Below are positions 398 to 64,000 of a stretch of 64,000 nucleotides of DNA, one piece after another. A model generated the notes under the pieces. That model was not told the DNA's origin and ran no database searches. It worked only from the letters and a program-made list of their open reading frames with translations. The stretch spans positions 51,398,001-51,462,000 of the forward strand of contig CM126219.1 in the NCBI GenBank assembly GCA_052327205.1, read 5' to 3'. This DNA comes from Somniosus microcephalus (taxonomy: Eukaryota). Position 1 is the stretch's first letter, and every line of letters begins with the position of its first letter. A program made the translations under genes and the position numbers.

Positions 398-670
398 TGG
401 TGTGTTCTCAAGAAGAGAGGGAAAATAAGTATAAGTACAGCAATACTTGTGGTGTTCTCAAGAAGAGAGAAGAAAATTAATTAGAATTTTCAGAAACAAG
501 AAATAAGTAAAGCAATACTTGTGGTGTTCTCAAGAAGAGAGAAGAAAATTAATTAGAATTTTCAGAAACAAGAAATAAGTAAAGCAATACTGGTGGTGTT
601 CTCAAGAAGAGAAGAAAATTAATAATAAGTAAAGAAATACTTGTGCTGTTCTCGGAAAGAGAAGAAGATG
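398..670 (+). repeat. 72-bp tandem repeat in the element leader (2 full copies plus 3 partial)
   Basis: CAATACTTGTGGTGTTCTCAAGAAGAGAGAAGAAAATTAATTAGAATTTTCAGAAACAAGAAATAAGTAAAG at 441 and 513; partial copies near 398, 585 and 635. Confidence 0.9.
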
Positions 671-3622
671 CCTAAGCGAGGAAATATTAATGATTTTAAT
701 GCTGAAATAGAAGACAGGGCCACGTATGGGGAACGCATAGGAATATATTGCGTAGCCATATACGCCAAGGCAATAACTTTGTTAAATTCGATGGGAGCAA
801 AAACATACGGGCTCTTGAAACATCTAATAGCACCAGTTAAACCAGTGGACCAGACCTTCGAAGAGAGCGTAGCAGTGCTGAAGGATCACTTGAACCCCAC
901 ACCGTTGATACTGGCTGAACGATTTAAATTTTACGCCAGAACCCAGAGGCAAGATGAAAGCAATGCGGAATACTTAGTCGAACTGCGTAAGCTAGCGAAA
1001 TACTGCCAGTTTGGAGGGAATTTGACAGAGGCGCTGCGGGACAAGTTCGTATGCGGCTTGGCCAAAGAAGGAACGCAGAAGCGACTTCTGGAAGAAAACG
1101 ACCTCACACTGGACAGGGCTGTCCTCATAGCTTCATCGCACGAAGCCGCAGCGAAAGGGGCGGCGGAAATGCAGCTAAAGGCGGCGGCACTCGGGGTGGA
1201 CCAAATGACTGCAAGCATTTCCAAATGCTACCGTTGTGGAAAGACAACGCACGACCAGAGTCAGTGCTGGTTTAAGAATCAAGAGTGCAGGAAATGTGGC
1301 AAACTGGGTCACATCGCGAAGGTATGCAGGTCCAGAAAGAAGACCAACAAACAAAGGAAGCCACCACCACAAGAAAAGTACAACAAGGTGCATCAGGTGG
1401 CTGAAAAGAGTTCAGACGAACAAAATTCAGACTCAGACCCAAACAGCCAGGAGTTGGATAGTCTGAGAATCCACAATGTGGGTAAAGTAACTGATCTACA
1501 GACGATCTGGGTCACACTAAAAATAGCTGGAGTCCAAGTACGAATGGAGCTGGACACGGGATCAGCTGTATCAGTCATCAACCAAAAGGACTACCACCGA
1601 CTATTCTCTCACATACCCTTAAGAAATACCAAGTTCGTATTACAGACATACACGGGGCATCGCGTATACCCCATGGGGAAGATAAGAGTCAAGGTGAGAG
1701 ATAGGGGTAAAGTACACCCAAGAATGAATTTGTACGTACTACCTGAGGGAGGACCACCACTTCTAGGACGGGAGTGGATCAAGAAAATAGACATGGAATG
1801 GCACTACCGACAAGCAATGACGAGTGAGGACTCGGTGCAGACAAGCAGCTCAGACTCTGAGCCGGAAGACGATAAGTCCAGCTTATGTATGAAAAACAAG
1901 GTTAACATTAACTCACGGACTAAGGTTGGAAAATCGATGGCGTGCATAAAGACAGAGAATTCTGAGTCTGTTCAAGCTACAGACATATGCATTACGGAGG
2001 AACACCGGGCTCGAACTCAACGCTATTTCAAAGTACAACAACAATTAGAACAATTAAGTTACCGCCTCGTACAAGAGATGAAAACAATGAAAAAGTTCTA
2101 TGACACCGAATGGGAGAGTCTGGAAAGACAACAGAACCTACTGGCTCAAGCAGAGAGCGACCATAGAGCCATCGTGACCAATTACCGATCACATCTCCCT
2201 GATGATGTTCAGGGGTTAGAATATTTGCATGATCTAGAGATACAGCAGAAGGGCAAATCACGCTGCACTGAGGATTTTGTTCTGCAATTAGAGACGGAGC
2301 TAGTGCAGGCAAAGTTAAGAGAAGTTGAATCACAGGGTGCTCTTAAGGAGATGCAGAAACAAATCTTGGACATGGAAAAGAGAAACGCTTCTTTACCTGA
2401 TGAGAATAATGTGGCCATGTTGCAAGAGGAGCTTATAGGGGCGAAACTGAAAGAAGCTAAGCAAAGGATGTTGGAACTTGAAACGCAGAACCAAATCAGC
2501 GGTAATCAGCTATGTCAAGCAGAGAAGGAGTGCAAGGGTCTACATGAGAAGGTGCAATATCTCTCAGCCCAAAATAAGGGACTACTCACTCAGTTAAATG
2601 AAAGTAAACGGGAAATGGCTGAGATGGACTGCAAGAATAAAGAAGAGTTGATGGCAGTGAGACTTCGAGAGGCAGATAGCATAGCAGCCTTGGCTGAACT
2701 CCAACAGGAAATTGCGAAAGAAACAAATGAAGAGGAATCTTCAGGAAGCCAGGATTTTATTCCAGTTCTTCTCTACGACTCCTTACAAGCAGAGTGCGAG
2801 AAGTTGAAAAAACAGTATGAACAGGCCCAGACTACAATTCTGGAGGGGGTTAACTCAGCAACCTCCGAAAAGCTAGTTTCGTTGGAAGTATATGAGCAAC
2901 TAAAGGTTGAACATGAGCAAGAAGTCCAAAGGCTGCAGGAAATTCTTGAGGAGCTCAGGGCCAAGACAGACTCATCGGTAGAAGTTCCATACATAGATGA
3001 GGATGTAGAGGTGAAAGACATGGCAGAACTCATAAAAATATGGAAGGAAGCCCAAGACAAATATGAGGCGGCAATTACCGAGGTTGACCGACTTGAAGAA
3101 CAGTTTCAACTGGGAATGGGCCCTGAACATGAGCTAGAGAGCATCGAGGCGCAACTTCTCCAAGCACTGGAAGCCAAAGTACAAGAGGAAGAGAAGATGA
3201 AAGCATTGGAGAAAATGATGGATGAAATGGAGGAGTACGCTGAATTACGTCCAGGGGAACAGGAGAATGGGGAAACAGCTACTTCAGTAGAAGGATTAAA
3301 TAGCCTGATAACGAAATCCCTGAAGGAAGGGAAAGGATTGAACGCACAAATGAGGCCAGGAGGGAAGGAAGGGCAGACATCCGAGGAAGAGCAGGATGAA
3401 TATGATTGCTTGAAGAAGGGTTTTGACCTGTTGAGTGACACCGAATGTTATGAGGATGTGGTCTGCCCAAATTGTGATGGGAACTCCCAAAGTGCTGAAA
3501 TCCTGAGGAAGCACTTAAGGTCTAAGGAACATAGAGAGTTGGTGGCGCTACAGATGGCAGCCGGGAAAAGAGCTCGGAGAGTTTCAAAAAGGCAGAAAAG
3601 AAAAAGAAGAAGCAGAAAATAA
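668..3622 (+). CDS. gag: Gag-protease fused in frame to ~600 aa of largely host-derived coiled-coil and zinc-finger sequence (984 aa from ATG 668)
   Basis: Uninterrupted ORF. Gag motif [11 protein letters not shown]...LRDKFVCGL, two CCHC knuckles ([28 protein letters not shown]) and protease ELDTGS...LLGREW. Homology to the 61769-62860 Gag-Pro ends at about 1804. Confidence 0.9.
   Translation: [984 protein letters not shown]
1997..2134 (+). other. STK10: Captured STK10(LOK)/SLK coiled-coil fragment
   Basis: [46 protein letters not shown] resembles recalled STK10 [46 protein letters not shown]. Confidence 0.7.
2135..2212 (+). other. Captured C-terminal fragment of an ANKRD24/RAI14/UACA-family protein
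   Basis: [19 protein letters not shown].DDVQ resembles the recalled family C-terminal motif (ANKRD24 ...[26 protein letters not shown]); short match. Confidence 0.5.
2270..2716 (+). other. EVI5: Captured EVI5/EVI5L C-terminal coiled-coil fragment with internal deletion
   Basis: [48 protein letters not shown] and [24 protein letters not shown] are near-verbatim recalled EVI5 motifs. Confidence 0.88.
2720..3115 (+). other. ANKRD24: Captured ANKRD24-like central coiled-coil fragment
   Basis: [25 protein letters not shown] resembles recalled ANKRD24 [44 protein letters not shown] resembles non-mammalian ANKRD24 as I recall it. End boundary approximate. Confidence 0.62.
3443..3619 (+). other. 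DNAJC21: Captured DNAJC21-like C2H2 (JAZ/U1-type) zinc finger and basic tail
   Basis: [34 protein letters not shown] resembles recalled [35 protein letters not shown]. The tail [11 protein letters not shown] resembles KLSKKQKKKKQ. Confidence 0.68.
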
Positions 3623-3890
3623 TAACTGTTTAAAATATTATTACTTCTACTACCTCAGTCCGAACACTACGAAAGGTGCTAAATTTGTAAAAAAAAATCC
3701 AGGGACATTATCAAGACAGCCAGTGGGTTGTATAAGTCCGCACTGCTGGTTCAACAGGACGAAAGTACAAGCTGTTAAAAAAAAAAAAAAAAAAAAGCTA
3801 TGGAGGATGCTGTCTGGAACGAATTAATACCAGAGACTGAATTTATGAACTGTTCCCACAGAGACTGAACCTGTAAACTGATTCCACTGA

Positions 3891-3995: not shown

Positions 3996-4056
3996 ATAAA
4001 GTTGAAGATTGTATGTTTAACGGGATTCTGTAAGTAATAAGCTAGGAAGGGAGGAG

Positions 4057-4309
4057 TGTTGTGTATGTAACCGTTTACCTTTAAGGGAACTATAGAATGT
4101 AACCGTTCGCCTTTAAGAGCACTACTTTAGGGTGGCACTATCTATTGGCTCATGTATACTGTAATACCGATAGTGACCACACCAGTATATAAGGGTTGTG
4201 ATACGTTAACTAGGGCAGAATCGCCCGAGCCGCTGAATAGTAAAGACGTGTTTTATTCTGTTAACAGTGGAGTCTGTGATTATTTATAATACAACCCACA
4301 GACTTAACA
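4057..4309 (+). repeat. 3' LTR of the chimeric Gypsy element
   Basis: Begins TGTT directly after the PPT and ends AACA. TATATAA box near 4186 and AGTAAA polyA-like signal. Core motif shared with the LTRs at 58715 and 63365. Confidence 0.85.
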
Positions 4310-7300
4310 CATATGACAGATGTCAGGTTGAGAATACAAGTGAGAATCAAGCTGAATATAGAAAGTTCAGAGGGGAAGTGAAAAAGAAAATAAGAGGGGC
4401 AAAGAGAGAGTATGAGAATAGACTGGCAGCTAACATAAAAGGGAATTTAAAAAGTCTTCTACAGACATATTATAAATAATAAACGGGTAGTAAGAAAAGG
4501 GGTGGGGCTGACTAGGGATGAAAAAGGAGACCTACACATGGAGGCAGAGGGCATGGCGGAGGTACTAGATATGTACTTTGCCTCTGTCTTCACCAAGGAA
4601 GAAGATGCTGCCAAAGTCATAGTGAAAGAGGAGGTAGTGGAGTTACTGGATGGGCTAAAAATTGATAAAGAGGAGGTACTAGAAAGGCTGTCTGAGCTTA
4701 AATTTGATAAGTCACCAGGACCGGATGGGATGCATACTAGGATGCTGAGGGAGGTTAAGGAGGAAATCACAGAGGCACTGGCCATAATATTCCAATCCTC
4801 CTTAGAAATGGGGGTGGTGCCAGAGGACTGGAGAATTGCAAATGTTACACACTTGTTCAAAAAAGGGTGTAAGGATAAACCCAGCAACTATAGGCCAGTC
4901 AGTTTAACCTCGGTGGTGGGAAGCTTTTGGAAATGATAATCAGGGACAAAGTTAATGGTCACTTGGACAAGTGTGGATTAATTAAGGAAGGCCAGCATGG
5001 ATTTGTTAAAGGCAAATCATGTTTAACTAACTTGATCAAGTTTTTTGATGAGGAGAGAGGGTTGATGTGGGCAATGCGGTTGACGTGGTGTATATGGACT
5101 TCCAAAAGGCGTTTGATAAAGTGCCAGCAAAGTTGAAGCACATGGAATAAAAGGGGCAGTGGCAGCATGGATATGAAATTGGCTGAGTGACAGGAAACTG
5201 AGAGTAGTGGTGAACGGTTGTTTTTCGGACTGGAGGAAGGTATACAGTGGTGTTCCCCAGGGGTCAGTACTAGGACCACTGCTTTTCTTGATATATATTA
5301 ATGACTTGGACTTGGGAATACAGGGCACAATTTCAAAATTTGCAGATGACACAAAACTTGGAGGTATAGTGAACAGTGAGGAGGATAGTGATAGACTTCA
5401 GGAAGACATAGACAGGTTGGTGAAATGGGCGGACACGTGGCAGATTAAATTTAACGCAGAAAAGTGCAAAGTGATACATTTTGGTAGGACAAATGAGGAG
5501 AGACAATATAAACTAAAGGGTACAATCCTAAAGCGGGTGCATGAACAGAGATACCTGGGGGTATATGTGCACAAATCGTTGAAGGTGGTAGTGCAAGTTG
5601 AGAAAGAAGTTAAAAAAGCATACGGGATCCTGGGCTTCATAAATAGAGGTACAGAGTACAAAAGCAAGGAAGCTATGATGAACCTGTATAAAACACTGGT
5701 TCGGCCTCAACTGGAGTATTATGTCCAATTCTGGGCACTGCACTTTAGGAAGGATTTGAAGGCCTTAGAGAAGGTGTAGAAAAGATTTATGAAAATGATT
5801 CCAGGGATGAAGGACTTCAGTTACGTGGATAGACTAGAGAAGCTGGCGTTGTTCTCCTTAGAGCAGAGAAGGTTGAGAGGAGATTTGATAGAGGTGTTCA
5901 AAATCATGAGGGGTCTCGACAGAGTAGAGAGAGAAAAACTGTTCCAATTGGTGGAAGGGTCGAGAACCAGAGGACGCAGAGTCAAGGGCCGCGATTTCGC
6001 CTACCTCAGTGGGTCCGGTGCGGCCAGGGTCAGTGGCGGGGTGTGACCCCGCTGCTGGCCCCAGCCCGCTCTGCAGAGTGATCTTACGTTGATTGGGCTT
6101 GTTAAGCCTGCCCAGCGTGTTTCCTGGCCAATTGAAGGAAGCGGGTCTGATGATGTCACTTGTTGACGCGTCATCAGCTGGTTTCCTTAAAGGGACCATA
6201 CGCAAAGTTATTTTGACATTTGCGTTGTCAGTGTTCTACAGCATTGAGGTGCTGCAAACACTGACAAGCACTGCACAGAGGTGCATGGCTGCACCCAGGC
6301 TCTCCCATGACTCCCTCCATATGCTTAAGGAGGGAGTCACAGCACGCAGAGAAGTGCTCTTCCTTTCCCATGGGCGGAAGACACTTCCACAAGAGATCAA
6401 TGCAGCCTGGTTGTACAATGCACAGGAGACACAAGCAGGGATGTGGTCAGGAGGACCAAGCTGCAATAGTGCAAACCTTTCAAGGATCTCAGTAGATCAC
6501 AAAACATTACTGCAAAGCCACACTCAACCTCATCTTGCTGTGCCACTCATCAAATCCCCATCACTCTGCCTTCCCTACCCTACTCCTGCACATCCTTACT
6601 CACACCAACTTACCTTGTACCTCCACCCATCCCTCTCGTTCCCCATCTCACTAGCCACCCCTCACACTCAGCCTCATCCTAGTCCAATCATACCAACTAA
6701 CAACACACAAGGGTAGGCACTTGGGTGTTTTAGCCAATGTTCATGTGAAGTTTCTGTTAATGTGCTGTCAAACATTGAAATCTTTATTTTCAATACTTTG
6801 CCTTCTTGGACAGATTTGTGTGCACCTTTGGAAGTGGCTTAGTGAGTTGCAGTGAATGGTGAGACATAATGGTATGCCCTGCAATGGCGATGAGTGTGAA
6901 AGGAATGGCTTGGGCATTGTAGGGATGCTTTATGGTGTTGGTGTGGGGTGGTGCCAACCTGGCACATCATGTGGCAGCCAGTGTGTACAGCGCTAAGTGA
7001 AGTAAATCTGGCCATGGTGAGGCCATCCCTGGCGTCCCAGGCAGCAATGTGGTCGGGCGACGATGCCCTGTGTCCTGTGCAGAATCAGGTGATTGCGGAG
7101 AAGGTTGGTGTTGTTGTTGGTGCTGCTGGTGTGCCTGGTGCTGCTCATGTTGGGACTCATCTTGGTGGGATTCAGAGGACCAAGGTGAGATAGTTTCAAG
7201 TGCACTGATGCTGATGTAATAGATGGCAGGTGAAGTTGAGATGACAGAAGCAAATCTGTCAATGGTCAGAGAGGTTGTTCCAATGAGTTGGCACTGGATA

Positions 7301-28992: not shown

Positions 28993-30252
28993 ATGGGAGC
29001 CATTTATTTCCTTCCCTTCTGGGCATTAGATGAGGAAGAAGAGCAGCTGCGGCACCAGCAGAACCAGGAACAACAGCAGCACCAACAGGAGCAGCACCAA
29101 CAGGAGCACCAAGCTGCTGATCACCCACCTGAAGCTGCACAGGCCAGAAGGGGCCAGCACATGGAAGCCCGTCAGCGCAGGAGATACCCCCCAAACAGGG
29201 TCTACAGACACAGGGTCAGCTACCTCAACATGTCTGAGCAGCAGTGCCAAAGGCGGCTCTGACTTTCGTGAGAGGTAGTGGGTGACATCTGCGCAATGCT
29301 GCAACAACATCTGCAGGTCAAAGGATCAGGTGGACAACCCTTACCAGTGGCCATCAAAGTCACCACCGCACTCAGCATTTTTGCCTCAGGCTCATTCCAG
29401 GGATCAGCAGCAGACATCAGCGGCATCTCCCAGGCGGCCGCACACACTTGCATCACGCAGGCAACCGATGCCCTCTTTGCCATCGCGCACAATCACATCC
29501 ATTTCACGAAGGATCAAGCAAGTATCACGGCGCGTGCGGTTGGATTAGCTAATCTGGCAGGATTTCCAAGGGTGCAGGGCGTCGTTGACTACACACATGT
29601 GGCCCTTAAGGCACCCCATTGCAATCCAGGTATTTTTGTCAATCGCAAGGGCTTCCACTCCCTTAAAGTTCAGCTGGTGTCAGACCACAAGAAGGAAATT
29701 TTGCATGTTTGTGCTGAGTACCCTGGCAGTTGCCATGACTCCTTCATACTGCGCCAGTCTAGTGTGCCTCCACTCTTTAGTCCGCCAGACCAACTTAACA
29801 GATGGCTACTTGGAGACAAGGGCTATCCCCTGAGGACGTGGCTAATGACGCCGTTGAGGAGACCAGCCAACAAAGCTGAGGAGCGCTACAACTCCAGCCA
29901 CATGTCCACCAGATCCATTATCGAGCAAACCATTGGTTTGCTGAAGATGCGCTTCAGATGCCTGGATAGATCAGGTGGAGCCCTGCAGTACTCAGCAGCC
30001 AGGGTCTCCAGAATGGTCGTGGTTTGCTGTGCACTTCACAACATGGCACAGTGTCGTGGCTTGCAGATTCCTGAGGACCAAGTAGCTCCTCACTTATCCT
30101 CCTCAGATGAGGAGGAGGAGGAGAAGGAGGAGGAGGAGGAGGAGAGCGAAAACGAACATCTTGCAGAGGCCCATCAACCAGCGGCAGCTGTATGCAAGAA
30201 CATAGCTGCCCGGGATGCAAGGTATGCACTCATCTTTGCCAGATTTGCTTAG
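28993..30252 (+). pseudogene. Harbinger (HARBI1-like) DDE transposase with one in-frame stop at 29260-29262
   Basis: [32 protein letters not shown] and [15 protein letters not shown] motifs; the 28993 and 29278 ORFs are in the same frame. Confidence 0.92.
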
Positions 30253-40002: not shown

Positions 40003-40893
40003 TAATCACAGAAGTAGAGAATATGCCAGAAATTTAGCAAATTTCGAATGAGACGAGCAGGTTGAACTTTTTTTGTTGTTGGAGTTTTTTTAGGGTGTTG
40101 TGTCCATTTCCCGAGTCTTGGGAAGAGACCGGGAGAAGTCCTGTACAATTTCAGGGCCACAATGTTTATCATTTACAGTTTTTAAGTTGCTCCATTTTAA
40201 AGATAAATTTTGCACGGCTCTGTTCCTCACAGAATGGGAGCAGCTACCCCGAGTCTCTGATTCATGCTCCGATTGAGCAAAACGCCCTTTAGTATTTTAG
40301 GGTTTAAGTTCAAGCAATACACAACCTAACAGAAGCTTCAGTGCAAATTCAAATGTGAAGGACAATGGAAGGCCTTATCTCTAGCAGGCCATTTAGAAAA
40401 GTGGTCTTGGATGTGAAACATGAAGCCATTAAAAAAACTGAGGCTGTGGCCTCATACTTGTCACAAGTTTCAATTCCAGGGGAGATTAACGTTCCTCCTT
40501 GAAAGACACTTTCAGGATGAGCAACGCGCTCTTTTGAGAATTATAATACATCCGACAGCTTGTTGATTGCTCTTGTGATTTCTGCTACATTAAAACAGAA
40601 CTGTAACTTCCCTAAACATTGCTACTATCCACTCTAATGTGAAGAAATAAAACCTACGGGTGGAAGTACCCCAAAGTACAGTACAGTTCCTCTTGTCACT
40701 GTCAGTTTTCCAGCTAAAATGAGAGATAACAAGCTTGTAGTGACAATTGGCCCATTCATGTAACTCACTGACACAAACTAAATTATACTTCACAAGAGCA
40801 AACTTTGTGAAAGAATCATCCAGGTTTTAAACTGCACCGAAGGTTAAATATGTTGTTCTGTTTCATTAATGTAAGGGATGTTAACAGCTCCAT

Positions 40894-41355
40894 CCATAAA
40901 CCAGCAAGGAGTCAACACCTTCAGGAGAAGAGGGTCATCAGCCCTGGAAATATACCCCAACAAGGAGTCAACACCTTCAGGAGAAGAGGGTCATCAGCCC
41001 TGGAAACATACCCCAACAAGGAGTCAACACCTTCAGGAGAAGAGGGTCATCAGCCCTGGAAACATACCCCAACAAGGAGTCAACACCTTCAGGAGAAGAG
41101 GATCATCAGCCCTGGAAATATACCCCAACAAGGAGTCAACACCTTCAGGAGAAGAGGGTCATCAGCCCTGGAAACATACCCCAACAAGGAGTCAACACCT
41201 TCAGGAGAAGAGGATCATCAGCCCTGGAAATATACCCCAACAAGGAGTCAACACCTTCAGGAGAAGAGGATCATCAGCCCTGGAAATATATCCCAACAAG
41301 GAGTCAACACCTTCAGGATAACCATAAACCAGCAAGGAGTCAACACCTTCAGGAA
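40894..41355. repeat. 56-bp minisatellite (7 full units plus partials)
   Basis: CAAGGAGTCAACACCTTCAGGAGAAGAGG(G/A)TCATCAGCCCTGGAAA(T/C)ATACCCCAA at 40905, 40961, 41017 ... 41297. Confidence 0.97.
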
Positions 41356-41932
41356 AAGAGGGCCACCAGTCCTAGAATCATACTGCAGTAATGCAAGATA
41401 TAACCTAGAACGCCTATACATGCTTCAGGACAATGAGGTAGCTGAGAGACAAATCCAACAAGTAGGAAAACACTCATGGTGGTGGGAGACAGTATATAAT
41501 GCAGGCCAGCATCTGTGGTACCGCTTGTTATCTGAATCTTTAATTGTTGCTCAGATTGTGATACTGGGGGTTTTGCTCATTTTATAACACCTCTAAGCCA
41601 ATAGACTGAAATGAGAAGATAGACATGAAATGACAGCTTTATTAAGGGGATGATAATAGTGATGTATCAGAAGAAGTTCTTCTCCCTCAAGTTGGAGAGT
41701 GTTGAAATATGATGAAGTAACCATTTTTATAACATTGAAATATAATGAAATAACTATTTTAAATCACTGCTGGATGACCTCAGAGGGCCTTAACCTCGTC
41801 AACTGTTAGATAACCTTGTTACAAAAGCAAAATACTGCAGACGTGGGAAATCTAAAATAAAAAGAGAAAATGCTGGAAATACTCAGCAGGTGAGGCAGCA
41901 TCTGTGGAGAGAGAAACAGAGTTAACGTTTCA

Positions 41933-47172: not shown

Positions 47173-49454
47173 AACTAGTGGAGACCAATTGGTACTTGCC
47201 TGTGTTATCTCTGGTCAAGACCACCAGGCAGGTCTGGACGTGGCATTCTTTAAGAAAGGCTGTGAAAAGGAAACTACTATTATCACCTTGGATGGCAAAA
47301 CATTGGCAAAGTGGAGATTCTGTATGAGGATACGCTTAAGGAACAATGTGATGTAAGTACTTTCCATTTTTCTGCGCAGACATGAGGACATGATGCATGT
47401 TTCCCTGAATGCATGCCTGAGTGCAGACGGTGTGAGCTTGATCTAAAAATTGAAACCAGTGCAATTAATACTTTAAAATGGGAGGCGGCAGGTAAAGATG
47501 CAAACTGTGTTTATGAAGGACCTGTGAACGAACCCAGTGACACGAACACATGAAGCTTTGTCTAAAGAGTTTCATTTCATTTGTCATCTGAATTATGTAA
47601 TTGAAGATATGTACAGTTTTATCATACAATGCTTAGAGAAATTGTACACTTTTACTAAACACAGTTGTAGAAGATTTTTAGTTGAACTCACAATGAGGCA
47701 ATGGGAACATGATAAAACAATGCACAAGCAATTAGAGGGATTAATGAATAGGCAGACAGGGCATGTTATATCAAAACAAAGAGAGTTCCTGGTTTTAATA
47801 AAAGGAAAGGCAGAAAGATTAGGACAGGTTAGGGATAACAGCAATCATTCATAACAACTGATCTCAATGGTGATTATGTATGGAGGGTTTTTACTTAAAT
47901 CAGATTCAAAAAGAGGTTAAATGGTATTATAAACAATTAGATCTGAAATTTTATATTACATAAACAAATGAGAATTTTGAAATCAGAAGGGAATATGGTT
48001 TGATGTAAGGTGAAAAGATTTGGATTGGTGTGTTATGCCAGGAAGCCTTGCAAGCAGAGTGATGTTGTTTCACAACTGATCCCTGTGATCGTGGCAATAG
48101 TATTGCTACCTGCTGATGATAAACTGATGGAGTATTGAAAGTGGAATCAATATGCTTGTTTGAGGATGATATACACGAGGAATTTGCGAACTATCTGAAG
48201 ATATTAGTGAGAGAAAAAGAAGGGTTCTGGATTGCACCAGAAAAAGTGGTACCGGACCATGCAGCTGCGGTGTGCTGTGAAGCCCATCGTTAGCTAATGG
48301 TTTCACCCTGGATAAAGAATCCCTAGTTCTACTATTGAATTCGGAAAGGACGTTGTTTATTCGGAGAGAGGAATGTATTGCACTACAACAAATAAGAAAT
48401 ACTACCTACTATATGACCGGTTTGGTGGTTAACATTTCGCCTCACACCAACCAGAATGACTAAATTGGGGATAAGATATTGGTAGCTGTTAGGGCCCACA
48501 AGTAAGCATGACCCTCCAGACAGAAGCCTTATGGGTGGTTGTAAATTTTGGCCGCAAAAGAATTATGTGTACTTAAACATTTAAAGCAAGGGCTAATTGA
48601 TGATTATCATGATTTGATTGTACCGATTAGATGCAATTTTTGTTGAGCAGTATATGTGGGTCCTTGCACCCACTTCCACTGAAGGTGTGGAGTGCTCTGG
48701 CTGGCACACAGCGGCAGGTTTCAGGTTGGCTTAGGGACTGAAGGAGAGGGCGCTGTAGGATAGGGTGTATTTGTATGATTTAGTAAAACATTTTTGTATA
48801 ACTATAATATGTGAAATTGTATGTTAAAAGCATAAAAGCCTGTATAAAATGGCGAATGGCTGAGAGAAAAGCAGGATGGGAAATTATGCCAACCTGACTG
48901 AAACTCGCTCTGTTTTCAATTACTGAAGTAATAGAATGTAATGCTAAGTTTATGGAGACTATCAGGAACATGGTATTCAGTAATGTGATGGAAAAGAGAT
49001 AAGAGAAGAGAGAGAAATGGAAGGCACCCCTCAGTGATACTGTGGCAGAGCCACTGAGGGACTCTGAACAACTGTACATAATTCCCTTTAACGATGTGTT
49101 AGCTACAGACTAAATCTGTACCATTGTATATACTGTTTGCATGTAGTGCGCGGTCCCTTTAAGAGCGCAGGCAAACGCGATGACGTCATGCCGCTAATCA
49201 CCCAAATGCGGGAAAAACGTGATGACATCATGACGCTATCCACAGGACCACCCGGCAGTCCTTGTGGAGCCTCCGACCTGTTAAGACCTGTATTCATAGT
49301 TCTCTTGCATCAATCTGTTTAAACTCGTTAGTTTGACATTAAAAACCTTTTTGATTGATTGCCTGCATCGAACTTAATCTCTAGATAGGAATTTGACCAT
49401 TCCTACATTGGTGACCCCGACTTTTGTGAACGGATTTCGCAAAAGGAACACAGC

Positions 49455-50088
49455 ATGGAGGCAAATGCCATTTCGTTGAAGCTGCCGCAGTTCTGGGAGC
49501 AACAAGCGACCTCGTGGTTCATCCAAGTTGAAGCCCAGTTCGCCCTGAGAGGCATCGTTGAGGATCAGACCCGATACTTATATGTGGTCTCCGCACTCGA
49601 CGGCTCTACTACCTCGCGGATAGTCAGTCTTCTCGAGAACCCCCCAGCAGACCGCAAGTATGAAACCCTCAAGGCGCGGTTGCTACAGGTTTTCGGGCTC
49701 ACGAAATCAGAGCGCGCCCGGGATCGGGGACTCCAAACCTTCCGAGCTGATGAGCCAAATGCTCACACTCCTCGGCTCCGAACCGGAATGCTTTCTCTTC
49801 AGAGAGTTATTCCTCAGCAAATTACCAGAGCAAGTGCAAGCGGCCTTGGCGAGATCCGAGGTCGAAGACTGCGCAGGGCTCGCTGCCGAGGCAGACAAAA
49901 TATTCGCAGTTATGCAACAGTATTGCGCTGCCACGAGACGCCCATCCCCCACAGACGCCGCCCTAGCTCCTCAGCCCGCGGGGCTGTGCTTCTACCACGT
50001 GCGGTTTGGCGCGAAGGCGAGATTTTGCCGCCCTCCCTGCAGCTTCTCTCAAAAAAAAACAACTCCGTCCAATGAAGAACGGGTCTAA
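49455..50088 (+). pseudogene. gag: gag (frameshifted)
   Basis: LKLPQFW...WFIQVEAQF, GDSKPSELM and CFYHVRFGAKARFCRPPC motifs. Confidence 0.9.
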
Positions 50089-50089
50089 C

Positions 50090-53000
50090 GGGTGCCCCGT
50101 GGCCGCGATGGCAATCGGCAATGCAGGCAAGCTGCTCTTCATCACAGATACCCTCGCCGGCCATCGGTTCCTGTGCGATACCGGAGTGCAGTGCAGCATT
50201 CTACCTGCGTCAGCTCTTGATGTACAGGCTGGGAGGCATGGCCTCCCCCTTGAAGCGGCTAATGGCGGAGCTATTCGGACCTTCGGCAGACAGCGGGTCC
50301 AGGTGTGCTTCGGCGGCCAGCGGTTTTTCTGGGAATTCGTTACGGCCAAGGTTTCGCAAGCCATTCTCGGCGCAGATTTCCTGTGTGCCAACGGCCTCCT
50401 GGTCGATGTAAGGAACCGACGGCTGATCAGCGCGGCCACGTTTCACTCTATCGCTTGCCACCGTAGTAACACCATGTCACGCACCGTCTCCTGCACTTTC
50501 CCAACTCCGAATGAGTTCGCTCGCCTGCTAGGCGAATTTCCAGACCTGACCAGGCCCACATTCTCCTCCACGGCCATGAAGCATGGTGCACTACCGGCCC
50601 CCCGGTCCACGCGCGGGCCCGGTGCCTCGAACCTGGCAAGCTAGCGGTCGCGAAGGCGGAGTTCGCAACAATGGAACGCTTAGGGATTATTCGCAGGTCG
50701 AATAGTCCCTGGTCTTCACCTTTTCACATTGTACCGAAACCTGGCGGCGGATGGCGGCCCTGCGGCGATTATCGGCGCCTAAACGACGCCACCACTCCTG
50801 ATCGGTACCCGATCCCCCACATCCAGGCCATTTGGCAGGAAACACCGTTTTTTCCAAGGTTGACCTTGTCCGAGGCTACCACCAGGTCCCGGTACACCCG
50901 CAAGATGTCCAGAAGACCGCAGTCATCACCCCTTTCGGTCTCTTCGAATTTTTAAGGATGCCGTTTGGGTTGAAGAACGCCGCCCAGGCTTTCCAGCGCT
51001 TCATGGACTCCGTGCTGCGGGACCTCAAGTTCCTTTTCATCTACTTAGACGATATCCTCATTGCCAGTCCTAATAAGGAGGAACACATCTCTTACCTTCG
51101 CACCCTCTTTCGACGCCTCAGCCAACACGGCCTGATTATCAACCCAGCCAAGTGTCAGTTTGGTCTGCACCAAATTGATTTCCTGGGATATCGCATTACC
51201 TCAGAGGGAGCGGTTCCTTTGCAAGTGAAGGTAGAGGCGGTGACATCCTTTCCACGCCCGCAGAACATAAAGGCCCTGCAGGAGTTCCTCGGGATGGTAA
51301 AATTTTACCACCGTTTCGTGCCTAAGGCAGCACTGCTCATGCAGCCCCTGTACGAGGCCCTCAAGGGCAAGTCTGGCAAGGATCCAGTGGGCTGGATGGT
51401 TGACATGGACCGGGCATTCACCGACACCAAGAGCTCCTTAACCAACGCGGCCATGCTGGCGCACCCGCTACCAGGAGCCACCATCGCCCTCACCACCGAT
51501 GCGTCAGATTACGCAATCGGCGCCGTTCAGGAGCAGTGGGTGAACGGGACGTGGCAGCTGTTGGCATTCTTCAGCCGTCAACTGCGGCGTAACGAACGGG
51601 CGTACAGTACTTTCGACAGGGAGTTACTAGCCCTTTTTCTGGCCATCCGCCATTTCCGGTTCTTGTTGGAAGGACATCCTTTCACCGCTTTCGTCGACCA
51701 TAAGCCACTGACTTTTGCATTGGCCAAGACCACCGAACCGTGGTCATCTCGACAACAATGTCAGCTGACATACATCTCCGAATTTACCACAGATATTCAG
51801 CACGTGGCCGGTAAAGACAACCTGGTGGTAGATTGCCTCTCCCACGCGACCGTGCATGCGGTCCAGCTGGGCATCGACTACGCCCTCATGGCAGCAGACC
51901 AAGTCTCAGACCCAGAGGTGCAGGCTTACCGCACCAATGCCACTAGCCTCCAGTTGGCCGACGTCAGGTTCCATTCGGCTGGTACCACGTTGCTGTGTGA
52001 CGTCTCCGTTCGGAACCCTCGCCCTATTGTGCCGGTCGCTTGGCGCCGCAAGGTGTTTGACGCCATACATGGGTTGTCACACCCAGGAATGAAGGCTTCT
52101 CAGAAGCTAATATCATCTAAGTTCGTTTGGTGGGGCAGGCATAAAGATGTCCACGACTGGGCCAACACCTGCGTGGTCTGCCAAAAGGCCAAGGTACAGT
52201 GCCACATCAAGGCTCCATTGGCCACCTTTGCAGTTCCTGAGCGACGGTTTGACCACGTTAATGTGGACCTGGTAGGACCACTTCCACCTTCCCATGGTTT
52301 TACGCACATCCTGACCATAGTAGATCGCACCACCAGATGGCCGGAGGTGGTTCCCCTGTCATCTACTACTTTGGCGGATGTGGCCAGGGCATTCATCTCT
52401 TCATGGGTCGCCCGTTTTGGAGTGCCTGCTGACATCTCTTTGGACCAGGGACCGCAGTTTTCCTCCGAACTTTGGAATGCGGTGGCTCAACGACTCGGTG
52501 TCAAGTTACACCGCACCACAGCCTACCACCCACAAGCGAACTGTCTGTGCGAACGTTTTCACAGATCGCTTAAGGCCGCACTGAGGGCCAGCCTCCAAGA
52601 CGCTGGATGGGCATACAAGCTGCCGTGGGTCATGTTGGGCCTTCGCATGGCCCCCAAGGAAGATCTTCACTCTTCTGCGGCAGAGCTCGTTTATGGTCAG
52701 CCGCTGCGAGTGCCAGGGGATTTCCTGCCAACACCAACGGAGCCATGGTCCGCCTCACGCCAGCTTATCAGTCACCAGGAAGCAGCCAGATGTTTCGCAC
52801 CGGTTCCCACATTGCATCACAGGTTTCAGGGCTCTCATGTTCCAGCGGAGCTGAAACAAGCCGACTACGTGTTCATCCACCACGATGCTCACCGGGATCC
52901 ACTCAAGGCCCCATACACTGGTCCTTTCTGCGTGTTAGTGGCAGGAGACAAAACCTTCAAGGTGGATGTCGGTGGTAAACCGGACCACATTTCGGTCGAC

Positions 53001-53227
53001 CGTTTGAAGCCAGCACACCTGGACCTTGACCGTCCCGTCGAGACCGCACAGCCACCGAGACAGGGTCGGCCGCCCACCGTCGTCACGCCAGAACAAGTGC
53101 AACCACCCGCCAGACCGCCCGCCGTCCAACAGCTTCCGCTTCGGGAATACAGGAGTCGTTCTGACAGGCTTGTCAGACCCCCTCACCGTTTGACTTTTTC
53201 TGTTAAAGACAATTCTGGGGGGGTGCA
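50090..53227 (+). pseudogene. pol: pol (PR-RT-RNaseH-IN) with frameshifts
   Basis: [29 protein letters not shown] zinc motif, DLVGP...DQG...ERFH and PYTGPF. Confidence 0.93.
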
Positions 53228-54054
53228 TGTGGCAGAGCCACTGAGGGACTCTGAACAACTGTATATAATTCCCTTTAATTATGTGTTAGCTACAGACTAA
53301 ATCTGTACCATTGTATATACTGTTTGCATGTACAGTGTGCGGTCCCTTTAAGAGCGCGGGCAAACGCGATGACGTCATGCCGCTAATCACGTGATCACCC
53401 AAACGCGGGAAAAACGTGATGACGTCATGACGCCATCCACGGGACCGCCCGGCAGTCCTCGTGCAGCCTCCGACCTGTTAAGACCTGTATTCATAGTTCT
53501 CTTGCATCAATCTGTTTAAACTCGTTAGTTTGACATTAAAAACCTTTTTGATTGATTGTCTGCGTCGAACTTAATCTCTAGATAGGAATTTGACCATTCC
53601 TACAATATCACTATAAAATGGACAGATTGTTTAGACAACATCTTGGGAAATGGTCTTTGGAAAGAGAACACCTAAAGATAAAAGGCACTTTGATATGCAC
53701 AAAGCGAGTGGGATCAACAAGGTCATAAAACATGTACTAGGTATCAGATAGCTGGTTGCAGTCACGTAGGCAAAAGAAAGGAAAGTGTATAAAGATACAG
53801 ATATTGAACACTGAAGGCAGCGTGAACCAAGTAATCAGAGTTGAAGGAGCTTCAGTCGACAGAACACAGCAAGAAACCAGAGAAGCGAGCTTCAGTTAAG
53901 AGAAAACAGCAAGAAAATAAAGAGACCACGCCACAGTCGCTCGGAAGGAATGCTGAGGCTCAAATGAACAAGACTGTGACTATCTCCTTGTTAAGTATTA
54001 CTTCTTTGTACTGGATATTTAATGCTTAATAAACCTGTTTTACTGATACACAAT

Positions 54055-54822: not shown

Positions 54823-55055
54823 ATTATACCTGTACCTGTTGCGTTTGCAAAGATAATCCAGAGACCGTAAGCAGAGTTCAGTTCATGTTGCTTCTTTAAT
54901 GGCTCCCACACACACACACTTCCAGGCAAAAGCAATCGAATACCTATACACAATACAATGATAACAGCACTATCAAACTCCATGTGCTCAGGCCAAGGCA
55001 ATCAAGTACCTAGCACCAATGTCAGACATAACATTTCCTCCCCCCTCACAGGATT

Positions 55056-58000
55056 TCAAACATGAAATGTAGTGACAAAGTCCTGTAGGTGGCCATGGCG
55101 AGAACGTGTACGAACAGGCCGAGGTGTGGACTGGTGAAGTGCAGGCCGAAGTGGGGACTGCTGAGGAGCAGGCTGAGGCACAACATCTGTTTGGGGGTTG
55201 GCTGGCTGAGTCACATGTGCATCCCGCCACTCTGGGGGTAAAGCTTGGGGGTTAGGTTCGTATAATCCCGCATCAGGGGGTGCTGGCACCTTCCGAAGGC
55301 AGCTGGCATGCCACCGAGAGCCGTCAGTGAGGCAGAAAGTGGCTGGTCCAAGTTGGTGGCTGATTTGGAGAGGGGAGGACCAGGATGATGCCATCTTATT
55401 GTTGCGGTGAGGCCTGCGGACTCTGACCCAATTGGAGACTGAGATGTTGGGCGCCTTGGCCCTCTTCGACTGGTCGAAGCGGAGTTTCATCTTCTCCTGC
55501 TGTCTAGCAACTGTGGCTTGAGCCGGTGGAGCAGGGCTCTGAGCTAGCGAGGGGCGGAGCCTGCCAAGGGGCAGCATGAGCTCACGGCCTAGCATGAGGG
55601 ATGCGGATGAGACCCCTGTAGTGGAATGCTGGGAGGCTCTGGAATGCAGCAGTGTGTGGAGGAGGGCCTTGTCAAATGCACACCCCTGGGATAGGTGTGC
55701 TCTGAGGCCATTTTTCAGTGTCTGGTTAAAACGCTCCACCCCCCCATTTGATTCGGGGTGGTAGTACGCTGTGCGAATGTGACGGATGCCCTTGCTCTCA
55801 AGGTAAGAGGAGAGTTCCGAAGAGACCATTTGGGGGCCATTGTCTGTGGTGATGGCCTTTGGATACCCCCAGCGGGAGAAGAGGGACTCAAGGATATCAA
55901 TGATGACCCGAGAGGTGACGGAGCCCACGGCAGTGACCTCTGGCCATTTTGAGTGCAGGTCATAGGTCACCACTAGGAACCGTTGATGGTGAGGGACACC
56001 ATGGATCTCCCCGCAGACGTCCAGCTGCAGGTGCTCCCAGGGCTGAGAGGGCCAGGCAAGGGGTTGCAGGGGTGGGGGAGCCAGTCTTGCCACTTACAAG
56101 GCAGGCTGCACAGTCCTTGACCAGGGCCTCGATTTCCCTGTCGATACCCGGCCACCACACTAGGTCTCGGCATCATTGTTTGAGCTTCACTATGCCCAAG
56201 TGGCCCTCATGCGCCATGGATAAAACACGCGCACGAAGGGCACTTGGGACCACAGTGCAGAGCCCACGTGCAACACAGGAGTCATTCCAGCAGGAGAGCT
56301 CCTCTTTAACTCTGGAGTAGGCAGACAGTTCCTCAGGCACCTTGCGAGGCCAGCCATCTCTGATGATGGTGCACAGCTGGGAGAGGGCCGGATCCTGTTC
56401 AGAGGCTTCTTTGAGCTCCTGGAGAGAGACTGTGGTTTGGAGAGGCGTGTGCAGCATCTGGACGATATCCTGTTCCACATGTTCAGACCCGACGAGTGGG
56501 GCTGGGGCAGAGACAGTGCGGGAGAGCAGATCTGCAACAACATTGTCACGTCCTGGTGTGAACTGGAGACTGAAATTGTATTGGCGGAGGTGGTCAGACC
56601 AGCGGTGTAGACGCAGTGGTCTGTGGCCCGTGCCGGATGTCGACAGCAGGGCAGTGAGAGCCTGGTGATCGGTTCGCAGGGTGAAGGCATGGCCATACGT
56701 GTACAGGTGCCACCGCTCACATGCCCAGACGCACGCCAGCGCCTCACGCTCGCCTACTGAGTACTTCTGTTCGGTGGGGCTAAGGGCTCGTGAGGCAAAG
56801 GCGATTGGTTTCTCCACTCCATTCTGTATCTGCGATAACACCACCCCCACAGCTGCAGCGGACGCGTCGCAGGTGACGAGGGTGGGGCTGGCGACGTCAA
56901 AGTGAGTCAACACTGGAGGCGACGTGAGCTGCGATTTGAGGAGGCGAACAGCTTCTGTACAGGCTTGTGACCACACCCAGGGCTCATCCTTTTGCAGGAG
57001 CTGGCGCAGTGGAGCTGTGGTGGCTGAGTACTGGGGCAAAAACTTCAGGTAGTACCCAGTCATGCAAAGGAAGGAGGCAACCTGTGCTGCAGAGCTGGGT
57101 TCTGGGATGCTGTGAATGGCATCCACGTTTGACTGGAGTGGGGATATACCGTCAGCCGACAACCGAAACCACACATATTCGATCTCTGAAACAGCAAAGA
57201 CACACTTTTCACCATTCAGTGTGAGCTTGTGTTTTGCTAGAGCTGTGAAAACTCTGTGAAGGCATTCGTCATGAGTGGAGGTCGAGGGCCCATGCACGAC
57301 GATGTCATCCAGGTAGATGGCCACCCCAGGAATGCCCGCGAGCACAGAGGACATCACCTTTTGGAAGCAGCTGGGTGCAGAGCTAAGTCCAAGTGGCATC
57401 CTGGTGTACCGAAAGACGCCAGCATGTGTCACAAAAGCAGTGAGTTCCCTGCTGCTGGGGTGGAGGGGAACCTGTAGATAGCCCTGTCGAAGGTCCAGTT
57501 TTGAGAACAGGATGGAACCATAGAACTGCGCTGTGAATTCCTCTGACGTGGGCAGTGGATACTTGTCAGGGATTACGGCCTTATTCACTGCTCGAAGATC
57601 GACACAGACGCGTAGACCACCTGACTTTTTTGTTGCGACCACCAAGTTGGAGACCCATGGGGAGGCATCAACTTGTTTGATGATGCCGGCTTCCAGTAGC
57701 TGCTTTAGTTCAGCTGTGACCCCGTCACGGAGAGCAAGCGGGATGCGGCGCAGTGGCTGAATGACAGGGGTAATGGTGGAGTCAACCATGGGCTGGTGGG
57801 TGAAGGCAGTCAGGCAGCCCAGACCCTCGAAGAGTGCTGGCCATGTTTGGCGCCACGGTGAGGCGATGTGCAGAATCGCAGACCCGCCGGTGTCCAAGAG
57901 AGAAAAACCCAGGTCAGTGAAAAGATCCAGTCCCATCAGGTTAGCTCCTTGGCGTGCCACATGAAAACAAAAATCTGGCAAAACTTTTGTTCCATAGCGT

Positions 58001-58714
58001 ACAGTGAGGTTGACTGAGCCCACTAGTCCAATTTTCAAATTACCATACCCGCAAAGGGTAGTGGAGGGCGCAGAGAGTGGCAGGGAGCTGAAAAAGCGTT
58101 TGAATGTGTCCACATTCAGCAGTGAGACGCTGACACCGGTATCCAACAACAGCGGGATGCATACATCATTCAGGTTAATTGTGCATGACTTGAAAGCCAC
58201 TACTGGCCCAGAGCTCACGTTGTGAATTATAGTGCTTGAGGACTGAGAGTGTTCATTTGTAGCAACCGGGGCAGAGCGGCAGACATTGGCAAAGTGATTT
58301 TGTTTTCCACAATTGCGACAGGCTTGGCCGCGCGCGGGGCAATTCTGCGCTCTGGTAGCATGTGAACGAGATCTGCAGTTTCCACACTGTTGCCGCGGTA
58401 GCGCGCGTTGCTACCGTCGCGCGAGCATTACCGTGTCAGAGCTGTCGGGCCAAGGGTGCTGTCACTGGGTGTGTGTGCTAGTTTTGCTGCACATTCGGCT
58501 GCAGACTCCAATTGAAAGGCAATGTTGACTGCCTGTGACAACGGCAGATCGTCGGACTCGAGTAATAGTCTTTCAGGCACTCTCAAATTGTTTGTGTCCT
58601 CTATTAGTTGATCACGCACCATCTTATCTTGTAGTGCACCGAACTTGCATGAGCTAGCTAACCCCCTCAAATTAGCCACGTGTTGATGCACCGACTCGCC
58701 GAGGAGTTGGTGAC
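55056..58714 (-). pseudogene. pol: gag(3' part)-pol of the outer element (gag 5' part at 63557-63865)
   Basis: LLDTG, RVCVDLR, YLDD, CDAS, HEGHLG, TDNG...VERFN; RRFIFRQRH|QLLGESV rejoins across the insertion. Confidence 0.93.
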
Positions 58715-61700
58715 TGTTATGCCCGTGTATAATCAGACACAGACTGCGGAGAACGGTACAAACAGTGTTTACTCAACGTGGCTCAAACTGCAACTGATCT
58801 GTACAGATTACTACTCAACGTTATATACAGGTGTGGTCACTGCCGGTACTACAGTATACATGAGCTGTAAAAATTAGTTACCCCCCTTAAAGGTACATAC
58901 ATTACAATTCCTCCCCTTTTAGATTAACAGTACCATAACACTCATTTAACAATTAAATATCAAACTAATTACAATTAACACTTTTAACATGCAACATTAG
59001 CTGAAAATAGTCTATTTATAAATTCAGTCTTTGGGGAGGCTTCCTGATCCTTTCTGGATAGCGCCTTTCCCGAGTGTCTTGCTCTTGGTGCGGAGGCGAT
59101 TCTGGCCCCCTGTCGTCGGTTGGTTCATCAGCTTCCGATGCTACTGTTTCTGGGGTAGATGCTACCTGTACGTCGAGTTCATCACCAGGTACGTATGGGC
59201 AAGGCATGGGGTTGACTTGTTCCTGTGACTCTAGGATCTGGTCAGCATGGCGTCTCACGATGCTCTCCCCAACGTCCACTGTGTACATTAGTGGGCCCTG
59301 CCGTGTGCATATCGTTCCTGGCTGCCATTTTTCTGTTCGGTAGTTGCGGGCCAAGACTGGTTGCCCTACATTGAAGCTCCTTGTTGGCTTCTCATGGATG
59401 TGCTGGAATTGCTTACTCTCAACATCTCTTCGTACGTTTGATCTGAGCAAATCCAGGCGAGATCTTAACCTTCGGTTAAAGAACATCATGGCTGGGGCCT
59501 GGTTGGTGACTGCATGTGTCGCATTCCGGTAGGCGAACAGGAAATTGTCCACCTTGTGCTGCAGCGGAATGTTGTCATTGTACATAGCCTTTATTGCCTT
59601 CTTAAAGGTTTGTACGAACCTCTCAGCCAATCCATTTGTGGCTGGATGATACGGGGCGGATGTGTAATGCCTTACCCCATTCTTTTTCAAGAACCTCCAG
59701 AACTCTTCGGACACGAACTGTGGTCCGTTGTCGGAGCAAATCTGTTCTGGCAAGCCATTCCTGGCAAAAATGGCCCGTAGGACTGCAATAGTTTTCTCCG
59801 TGGTGGTGGAGGACATTTTGATGACCTCAGGCCATTTCGAGTGCGCATCCACGGCTATTAAAAACATTGAGTCCATGAATGGACCAGCAAAATCAATATG
59901 CACCCGTTGCCATGGAGATGAGGGCTACTCCCATGGGTGTAGAGGGGCCTGTGGTGGTGCATTTTGGACTTTCTGGCATCCTGAGCAGCTCTTGGTCAGG
60001 TTCTCGATTTGTTTACCGATTCCCGGCCACCACACATAAGCCCTGGCTAGGCTTTTCATTTTTACCCCTCCCAGATGACCCTCATGAAGCTCATTGAGCA
60101 TTCTATCCCTTAACTTGGGTCGAATTACCACGCGGGATCCACACATCAAGGTCCCCCAGCACACTGACAGCTGTTCTCTCCTTGTCGAGAATGCTTGCAA
60201 CAGTGAGTCGCCATGTGCTGGCCATCCCTTCACCTTCAAATCATATACCCGAGACAGTGTCGGGTCATTTTGGGTTTCCTTTTCAATACAAGCGTTAGTT
60301 ACCGGTCGGTTTTCAACTATAGTCGAATGGAATATTTCGACAGGATCCACTGCTGCTGCTTCCTCCACAGTAGGCAGTGGCAGGCGTGATAGCCCATCAG
60401 CATTTCCATGCTGTTTCGTGCCCTTATATTCAATCTCATAGCGGTGCGCCCCTAGAAGAAGTGACCATCTTTGTAGTCGTTGCGCAGTCATCACCGGAAC
60501 GCCCTTCTTCGGATTAAAAATGGAGACAAGAGGCTGGTGATCAGTCAGCAAGGTGAATTTCTGCCCGTGCAGATAGTGATTGAAGTTTTTCACTCCCCAC
60601 ACTAGGCTGAGGGCCTCCCTGTCAATCTGGGCGTAGTTACACTCGGCTGAGGTTAGTGATCATGACGCAAAGGCTATTGGCCTCCCTGAGCCGTCTGAGA
60701 ATTTGTGCGACAGCACCGCTCCAATGCCGTAGGGTGACGCATCACATGCCAACCGAATTGGTAATGCCGGGTTGTAATGGGCCAATACCTCTTTCGATGT
60801 GATTAGTGTTTTGCTCTTCTGGAAAGCTCGTCTACATTCATCACTCCACTTCCATGGCACCCCAGTTTGCAGTAGGGTGTTCAGTGGGTGTCGTATTGTA
60901 GACAAATTTGGCAAGAACTTATGGTAGTAGTTTACCAGCCCGAGGAACGACCTCAGTTGTGACACATTTTCCGGTGCTGGAGCCTTGACTACTGCTTCAA
61001 TCTTCTCTGGGACTTATGTAACCCCTCTTTATCGATAACGTGGCCACAATACGAGATCTGTTTTCTAAAAAGCTCGCATTTGGGGCGGTTAGCTCGGAGC
61101 CCATATTCCTGCAATCTAGTGAGCCCCTGCTCCAGGTTGGCAAGGTGATCACTGTCATTTTCGCCCATGACCAGGATATCGTCCAAATAACACTGGGTCC
61201 CTGGGATCCCTTGCAGGACTTGTTCCATTGCCCTCTGCCAAATAGCCGGAGCTGATGCTACCCCGAATACCAGCCGGTTGTATTGGTAGAGACCTTTATG
61301 GGTGTTGATTGTGAGGTATTTTTTTGATGCTTCTTCTACCTCCATTTGCAGATACGCCTGGGCCAGATCAATCTTAGTGAAGCGTTCCCCTCCAGATAGC
61401 GAGGCGAAAATATCTTCAATCCGCGGAAGTAGATATTGTACGGTGTGAAGGACCGGGTTCACTGTTACCTTAAAGTCCCCACAGATGCGAACCTTCCTTG
61501 GTTCCCCAGGCGCGTTGCTCAATGACTTTTTCTTCACAGGGATGATGGGTGTAGCCCACTCGCTCCAGTCTACCTTGGACAGTACACCTGAACGTTCCAG
61601 ACTCTCCAGCTCTGCTTTGACGGCTGGGCGGATCGCATAAGGTACCGGTCTGGCCTTAAAAAATTTTGGACTTGTGTTTTCTTCAATTTTAATCGTCGCT

Positions 61701-63556: not shown

Positions 63557-64000
63557 GTGACGCTGTCTAAAAATGAATCGCCGCAGGAGGGCACATTGTG
63601 GGGCAGAGAAGTGTGTGCTTAACAGAGCCACAGCCTGATCATATGTTTGAATTGAGTCTGCTGTGCATAATGTCCCAAGAACACGCTGGCCCTCTGCTCC
63701 CAAGCAATTGGATAACAGTGCCTTTTTCCAAGCCGTACTCACAGTTTCTAGTCCAAGAGCAATGAGGTAGGTTTCAAAGGACTGTAACCAGCGAACCCAT
63801 GGGATCGGGGGCTCACCTGGTAGTGCAAGGAAGGGAGGAGGTGGTGGAAGAGAGATTTCAGCCATCCTTGTCGCCAAATGTTGCGTTTGCAAAGATAATC
63901 CAGAGACCGTAAGCAGAGTTCAGTTCATGTTGCTTCTTTAATGGCTCCCACACACACACACACACTTCCAGGCAAAAGCAATCGAATACCTATACACAAT

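Follow-up and report, generated by a model that had tools for sequence, protein, structure and literature searches.

A circularly permuted turn of EVI5 exons, probably copied from a circular RNA, inside a young LTR retrotransposon of Somniosus microcephalus

Introduction

Two described systems come close to the locus reported here. Pseudogenes derived from circular RNAs (circRNAs) have been found with LTR-rich flanks, and in the part of that account cited here their mechanism "remains mysterious" (Dong et al. 2016, PMC4897178). Those are pseudogene copies, whereas here the circle is carried in frame by an intact LTR element that is present in thousands of copies, both switch points can be seen, and three events are nested in one another. 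In LTR-mediated retroposition, as set out in the sections cited, host RNA replaces internal ORFs through switches at microsimilarities (Tan et al. 2016, PMC5131818), and, as at our locus, multi-gene chimeras go through further rounds as non-autonomous elements. Microsimilarity at the switch points and cargo replacing internal ORFs are both found here, but the word "circular" is absent from the main text of that paper, whereas our element has a permuted donor and a fusion that stays translated. The maize Bs1 element, a plant LTR element, also carries pieces of three unlinked host genes, with no back-splice joins in the account cited (PMC5131818).

Human EVI5 yields a circular RNA, circEVI5 (hsa_circ_0013162, 339 nt, in the sections cited of PMC8342614 and PMC13414913), which, judging by lengths, would correspond to exons D, E and F of our map (147+96+96) and differs from the 678-nt circle of exons A-E inferred here. 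A shark genome preprint describes retrocopies of OPTN and other genes flanked by LINEs or LTRs; there, as at our locus, OPTN copies without introns lie close to LTRs. Its main text is without EVI5, STK10, "circular" and Gypsy (10.1101/2024.09.09.611499). A search of freely accessible literature listings and of the papers cited above returned no account of the element or of serial circRNA capture.

The element described here unites circRNA-derived pseudogenes with LTR-mediated retroposition, and its serial, in-frame, proliferating form appears to be new. The route by which circRNAs are retrotransposed was left open earlier; here switch points, intermediates and host exons occur together in one genome for three genes, which makes a route by LTR template switching testable by sequence and RNA-seq.

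Results

A non-autonomous LTR element with host cargo

The window, a stretch of 64,000 nt (GCA_052327205.1, contig CM126219.1, positions 51,398,001 to 51,462,000 of the forward strand), contains a single ORF encoding gag, zinc knuckles, an aspartic protease, host cargo, a C2H2-like finger and a basic tail. The element and its parts are as follows, in window coordinates except for the first:

L031:4560-4812, just upstream of the window: 5' LTR of 253 nt, and primer site
668..3622, + strand: single ORF of 984 codons, gag-protease-cargo-finger-tail, no RT, RNase H or integrase
1822..2136, + strand: STK10/SLK-like piece, a big exon and then two coiled-coil exons, 77-87% to host exons on C8
2137..2229, + strand: ankycorbin-like piece, part 1, the end of exon N+1, then N+2, then the start of upstream exon N (host gene on C13)
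2230..2245, + strand: the final 16 nt of exon E of EVI5, up to the splice donor, 16/16 identical to host
2246..2715, + strand: EVI5 exon A, the 5' part of B, the 3' part of C, all of D and nt 1-80 of E, from the host exon map
2716..3243, + strand: ankycorbin-like exon N resumed from nt 18, with in-frame deletions of 24 and 51 nt
3233..3418, + strand: worn optineurin-like (OPTN) piece, collinear with host exons on C17
3424..3622, + strand: C2H2-like zinc finger and Arg/Lys tail (weak Pfam matches)
3731..3778, + strand: what is left of the opening part of the STK10/SLK-like big exon, found downstream of the later part of that exon and forming the other end of the permuted piece
4045..4314, + strand: polypurine tract, 3' LTR (4057-4309) and 5-bp target duplication CATAT

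Zinc-knuckle (CCHC) and aspartic-protease matches were found in the ORF, and tblastn with two pol proteins from the window gave no match in the element. At the same time, the hallmarks of an LTR element are present: two TG..CA LTRs, identical to each other over their 253 nt, a primer site, a polypurine tract and a target duplication. The flagged EVI5 peptide was 100% identical in all of the 150 candidates scored, out of 3,172, and 20 whole copies were taken from those 100% identical to it. In these the LTR pairs differ by 0-4 mismatches of 253, and 17 have a 5-bp target duplication, with two of the remainder forming a tandem pair and one being without a right LTR. The element is a young, dispersed, non-autonomous Ty3/Gypsy-type LTR retrotransposon. 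Relatives with pol-like sequence, whose gag is about 69% alike, lie near C8:167.21 and 167.26 Mb, both fragmented.

Within the window we also noted a gag-protease at 61769-62860 that is 70% alike to the element's own, and further pairs of LTR-like repeats, at 49041-53604 and 54837-63961, that are accompanied by ORFs for Gypsy pol or gag-protease. The element's 5' leader contains a 72-nt tandem repeat (431-646) that varies between copies.

The EVI5 piece is permuted

The initial annotation had recognised an intronless EVI5 coiled coil at 2270-2716 without the TBC domain, and both points hold: the best homologues of the piece are all shark or ray EVI5, its nucleotide identity to host exons on G000:C3 is 89-98%, and the TBC domain is absent. 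Mapping of the junctions on the host gene showed that four introns of 2-35 kb are missing and that the piece draws on five exons across 45 kb (A 135, B 141, C 159, D 147 and E 96 nt; all phase 0, with AG/GT borders), so that a single genomic exon as its source is excluded. The piece begins not at 2270 but at 2230, with the end of exon E ahead of exon A. Read in order it consists of E nt 81-96, A, the 5' part of B, the 3' part of C, D and E nt 1-80, such that the donor of E is joined to the acceptor of A exactly on the splice sites (2245/2246), while the piece ends one base short of the host-exon point where 2230 begins. It makes a single complete turn of exons A-E in circularly permuted order. 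Only exons within the inferred circle are present, with no poly(A) tail at the insert, and exons Y, Z and F gave no match in 21 element copies. The end of upstream exon Y was considered as a source of the first 16 nt and rejected, with 15/15 nt matching E versus 10/15 matching Y.

This arrangement suggests that the EVI5 piece was copied from a back-spliced circular RNA through reverse-transcriptase template switching, a reading we hold to be likely. The earlier proposal of capture at the RNA level with later deletion is supported by the exon map, with the amendment that a back-spliced circle, and not an ordinary mRNA, is the most probable template.

The in-frame deletion proposed initially is real, removing 192 nt (64 codons) between the middle of exon B and the middle of exon C, but its crossover lies at 2444-2447 and not at 2458/2459. 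The crossover falls inside an 18-nt imperfect repeat (14/18 nt; AKLREA/AELKEA), so that a repeat-to-repeat deletion stands, though not one between LREAE repeats: the LREAE/LRGAE repeats are 55 codons apart versus 64 codons lost, and one of them is wholly removed. Exon skipping or a native short isoform is likewise rejected, since the deletion ends mid-exon and the full spacing across the deleted segment is kept in 106 of 120 homologues (14 were unmatched by the motif test).

The same deletion or a larger one is present in 40/40 copies, and no undeleted EVI5-bearing copy was found among 5 candidates or these 40. A further 150 nt is gone in 5/20 copies, a form also seen in RNA. Twenty junction-chosen copies (20 of the first 22 listed E-to-A copies, two left out) have the layout in common, with a near-native start of exon A in 13 and an ORF open from start to tail in 6.

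Selection on the frame

The initial annotation had suggested a dominant-negative or interaction-only role for the coil. One could imagine, with the circle origin retained, that the coil makes Gag-protease dimerise, substituting for the lost Pol, or acts as a dominant negative on EVI5 partners, and it would fit such a role that four of the five named cargoes are coiled coils, that the family is transcribed, and that the window copy compared with the host over 161 codons has 9 synonymous and 19 non-synonymous changes (w 0.5). However, shared variants in 40 copies give w of about 0.84 for EVI5 (13 synonymous, 33 amino-acid-changing), not different from neutral (P=0.34), and 1.02 for ankycorbin, 0.67 for STK and 0.73 for OPTN, none of them significant, as against about 0.15 for gag, 0.25 for protease and about 0.40 for the tail (all P<0.01; tail P=0.003). 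Large deletions recur, among them the extra 150 nt, and sister elements have an Ig array instead. We consider a retained function of the coil unlikely, and the dominant-negative proposal is not supported.

Every fixed junction of the window copy is in frame, and the cargo of the 40 copies contains one shared stop versus about 12 expected, stop counts being lowered by the choice of 20 of these copies for identity to the window. These results suggest selection on an open frame reaching the tail, perhaps due to a function of the tail or to avoidance of early-stop decay, and not on EVI5 residues. Near-neutral EVI5 codons in a frame that is kept favour a stuffer over a dominant negative, and the EVI5 coiled coil is likely in-frame stuffer under near-neutral evolution, which repeat-mediated deletions trimmed afterwards.

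Nested cargoes

The EVI5 turn lies within the ankycorbin-like piece (named from homologue matches, the best being sharks and rays), which itself lies within a permuted STK10/SLK-like piece (named from a Pfam PKK search and a PDB match of a sister piece to STK10). In the ankycorbin-like piece, exon N+2 is joined to upstream exon N exactly on splice sites (2212/2213), and the EVI5 turn is inserted after nt 17 of exon N, which continues at nt 18 with nothing lost. TTGC is common to both sides of this insertion, with entry and exit one base off a clean TTGC crossover, and the one-base stagger puts both insertion joins in frame. Seven of the eight sampled ankycorbin-join copies are pre-EVI5 intermediates without EVI5. 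A pre-EVI5 element with the ankycorbin-like piece (L079, G000:C13:62867558-62869492) was also seen antisense in an intron of the same host gene.

The STK10/SLK-like piece is the oldest cargo. Its join, from the donor of exon P2 to the acceptor of upstream exon H, is kept by sister copies, and the window copy has the H-side remnant in its 3' UTR. Sister L188 has five STK exons (97.6-99.3%) in permuted order, with both ends in the big exon and a 14-nt overrun past one turn, and in it the STK turn replaces pol up to a tail that we take to be integrase-like. The order was permuted in 12/12 STK-join copies, three of which have the undeleted five-exon form. The Pfam PKK search of the whole genome returned 16,569 first-look candidates, which makes the STK-bearing elements a very large family. 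Among side observations, L184 has an insert of about 360 nt within exon P2, several sisters (L181 and L186 noted) have a different piece in place of the start of the STK turn, and L087 (G000:C3:354658274-354658945) is an intronless STK10/SLK-like 3' end, apparently an ordinary retrocopy.

Altogether, a back-splice join was found in three of five tested cargoes (EVI5, ankycorbin and STK), two of these three being full turns. The OPTN piece follows four host exons in collinear order, and the Ig array of sister elements (320 residues) is likewise collinear with its match, a protein of 7,323 residues (63%). This array occurs in 5/12 STK-join copies, and we presume, partly from its size, that it resembles obscurin; as a 960-nt array in frame in STK exon H it was noted in L182, L183, L184, L186, L191 and L134. 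The host source of the zinc-finger piece was not located: the gene from a PF21884 search, presumably DNAJC21-like, did not match. A PDB search with the tail gave nothing useful, and with ORF residues 380-535 a homologue search gave no match and Atlas generic coiled coils only.

Origin of the joins

The exact EVI5 E-to-A join occurs in 1,866 genome copies, the ankycorbin N+2-to-N join in 3,710 and the STK P2-to-H join in 962 sister copies, with reversed-pattern controls giving 0 in each case. A linear RNA with repeated exons, arising by trans-splicing or from a lost tandem genomic duplication, predicts the same E-to-A join and full-turn sequence and is not separated from a circle by sequence alone; consistent with such a template, no go-back joint of a native EVI5 circle was among those listed for a pair of RNA runs, of which 24% and 31% were read at a threshold of 2 in 100, enrichment of the libraries not being stated. 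The host loci, however, are without duplicated exons: each EVI5 exon is single in 200 kb of the host locus, B and C were found once (C once more for a paralogue), and the host exons of all three genes are single-copy in the regions read. Moreover, in a relative (X14, organism F, 55% read; 8 contigs) the listed pieces match only single, separate host exons. Considering that repeated-exon RNAs would be required for three unrelated genes, we regard them as an improbable source.

A backward jump of the reverse transcriptase in ordinary linear mRNA, landing on exon borders by luck, is highly improbable: template switching at short matches is habitual in the family, 1-4 nt are common at the joins and the last bases of exon E are similar to those of an upstream exon (10/15 nt), but jumps with at least the observed microhomology fall on EVI5 donor-acceptor pairs in 21 of 77,934 cases (11 of 4,518 with exon Z left out) and on ankycorbin pairs in 1 of 8,574, a chance of 2.7e-4 to 2.4e-3 and 1.2e-4, respectively (overall 1e-4 to 2e-3 per event, raised about threefold by the frame filter). 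Three such events would be needed, and the remaining mapped junctions and deletions are all mid-exon.

Copying from a back-spliced circle is the reading we retain. The introns flanking the EVI5 and ankycorbin circles have matches in common in inverted orientation only, which speaks weakly for it. Against it, inverted matches are absent from the introns flanking the STK circle and are stronger in EVI5 intron pairs other than the flanks of the circle, no native joint was listed in RNA, two of the five cargoes are collinear, and entry and exit are one base off a clean TTGC crossover.

Expression and range

At least half of the stretch was found in ten sequencing runs of three organisms, with no RNA run listed among them. 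RNA runs X23 and X24 gave 13,676 and 8,287 reads at 85% likeness, and 1,815 and 748 at 99% or more. The X23 reads are mostly sense, showing that the family is transcribed, and at 2536 about half of them have the window's letter.

Discussion

What can be read directly (permuted order, splice-site join, adjoining start and end, nesting, copy numbers and sense transcription) is consistent with the following route. Reverse transcriptase, supplied like the integrase by a helper element, would have switched onto a co-packaged EVI5 circle and off it again at one short TTGC match, and the products may survive because circles of phase-0 exons leave the ORF open to the conserved tail. More broadly, the lineage might preferentially package and reverse-transcribe host circRNAs and reuse them as frame-preserving cassettes, with the reverse transcriptase entering a circle, copying one turn and switching back; for this proposal we see an even balance, and the collinear OPTN piece and Ig array speak against universal circle capture. 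If true, the subfamilies would be a dated fossil record of germline circRNAs, showing how circRNAs become DNA.

The element combines exon permutation and multi-gene shuffling within a translated, proliferating ORF. In such genomes it can be the source of seeming "duplicates" of EVI5, STK10, ankycorbin and OPTN, in their thousands, and of back-splice reads for these genes.

Apart from the element, the window holds an unrelated 56-nt array at 40840-41377 and a DDE_Tnp_4 (Harbinger-like) nuclease ORF of 318 codons at 29296-30252.
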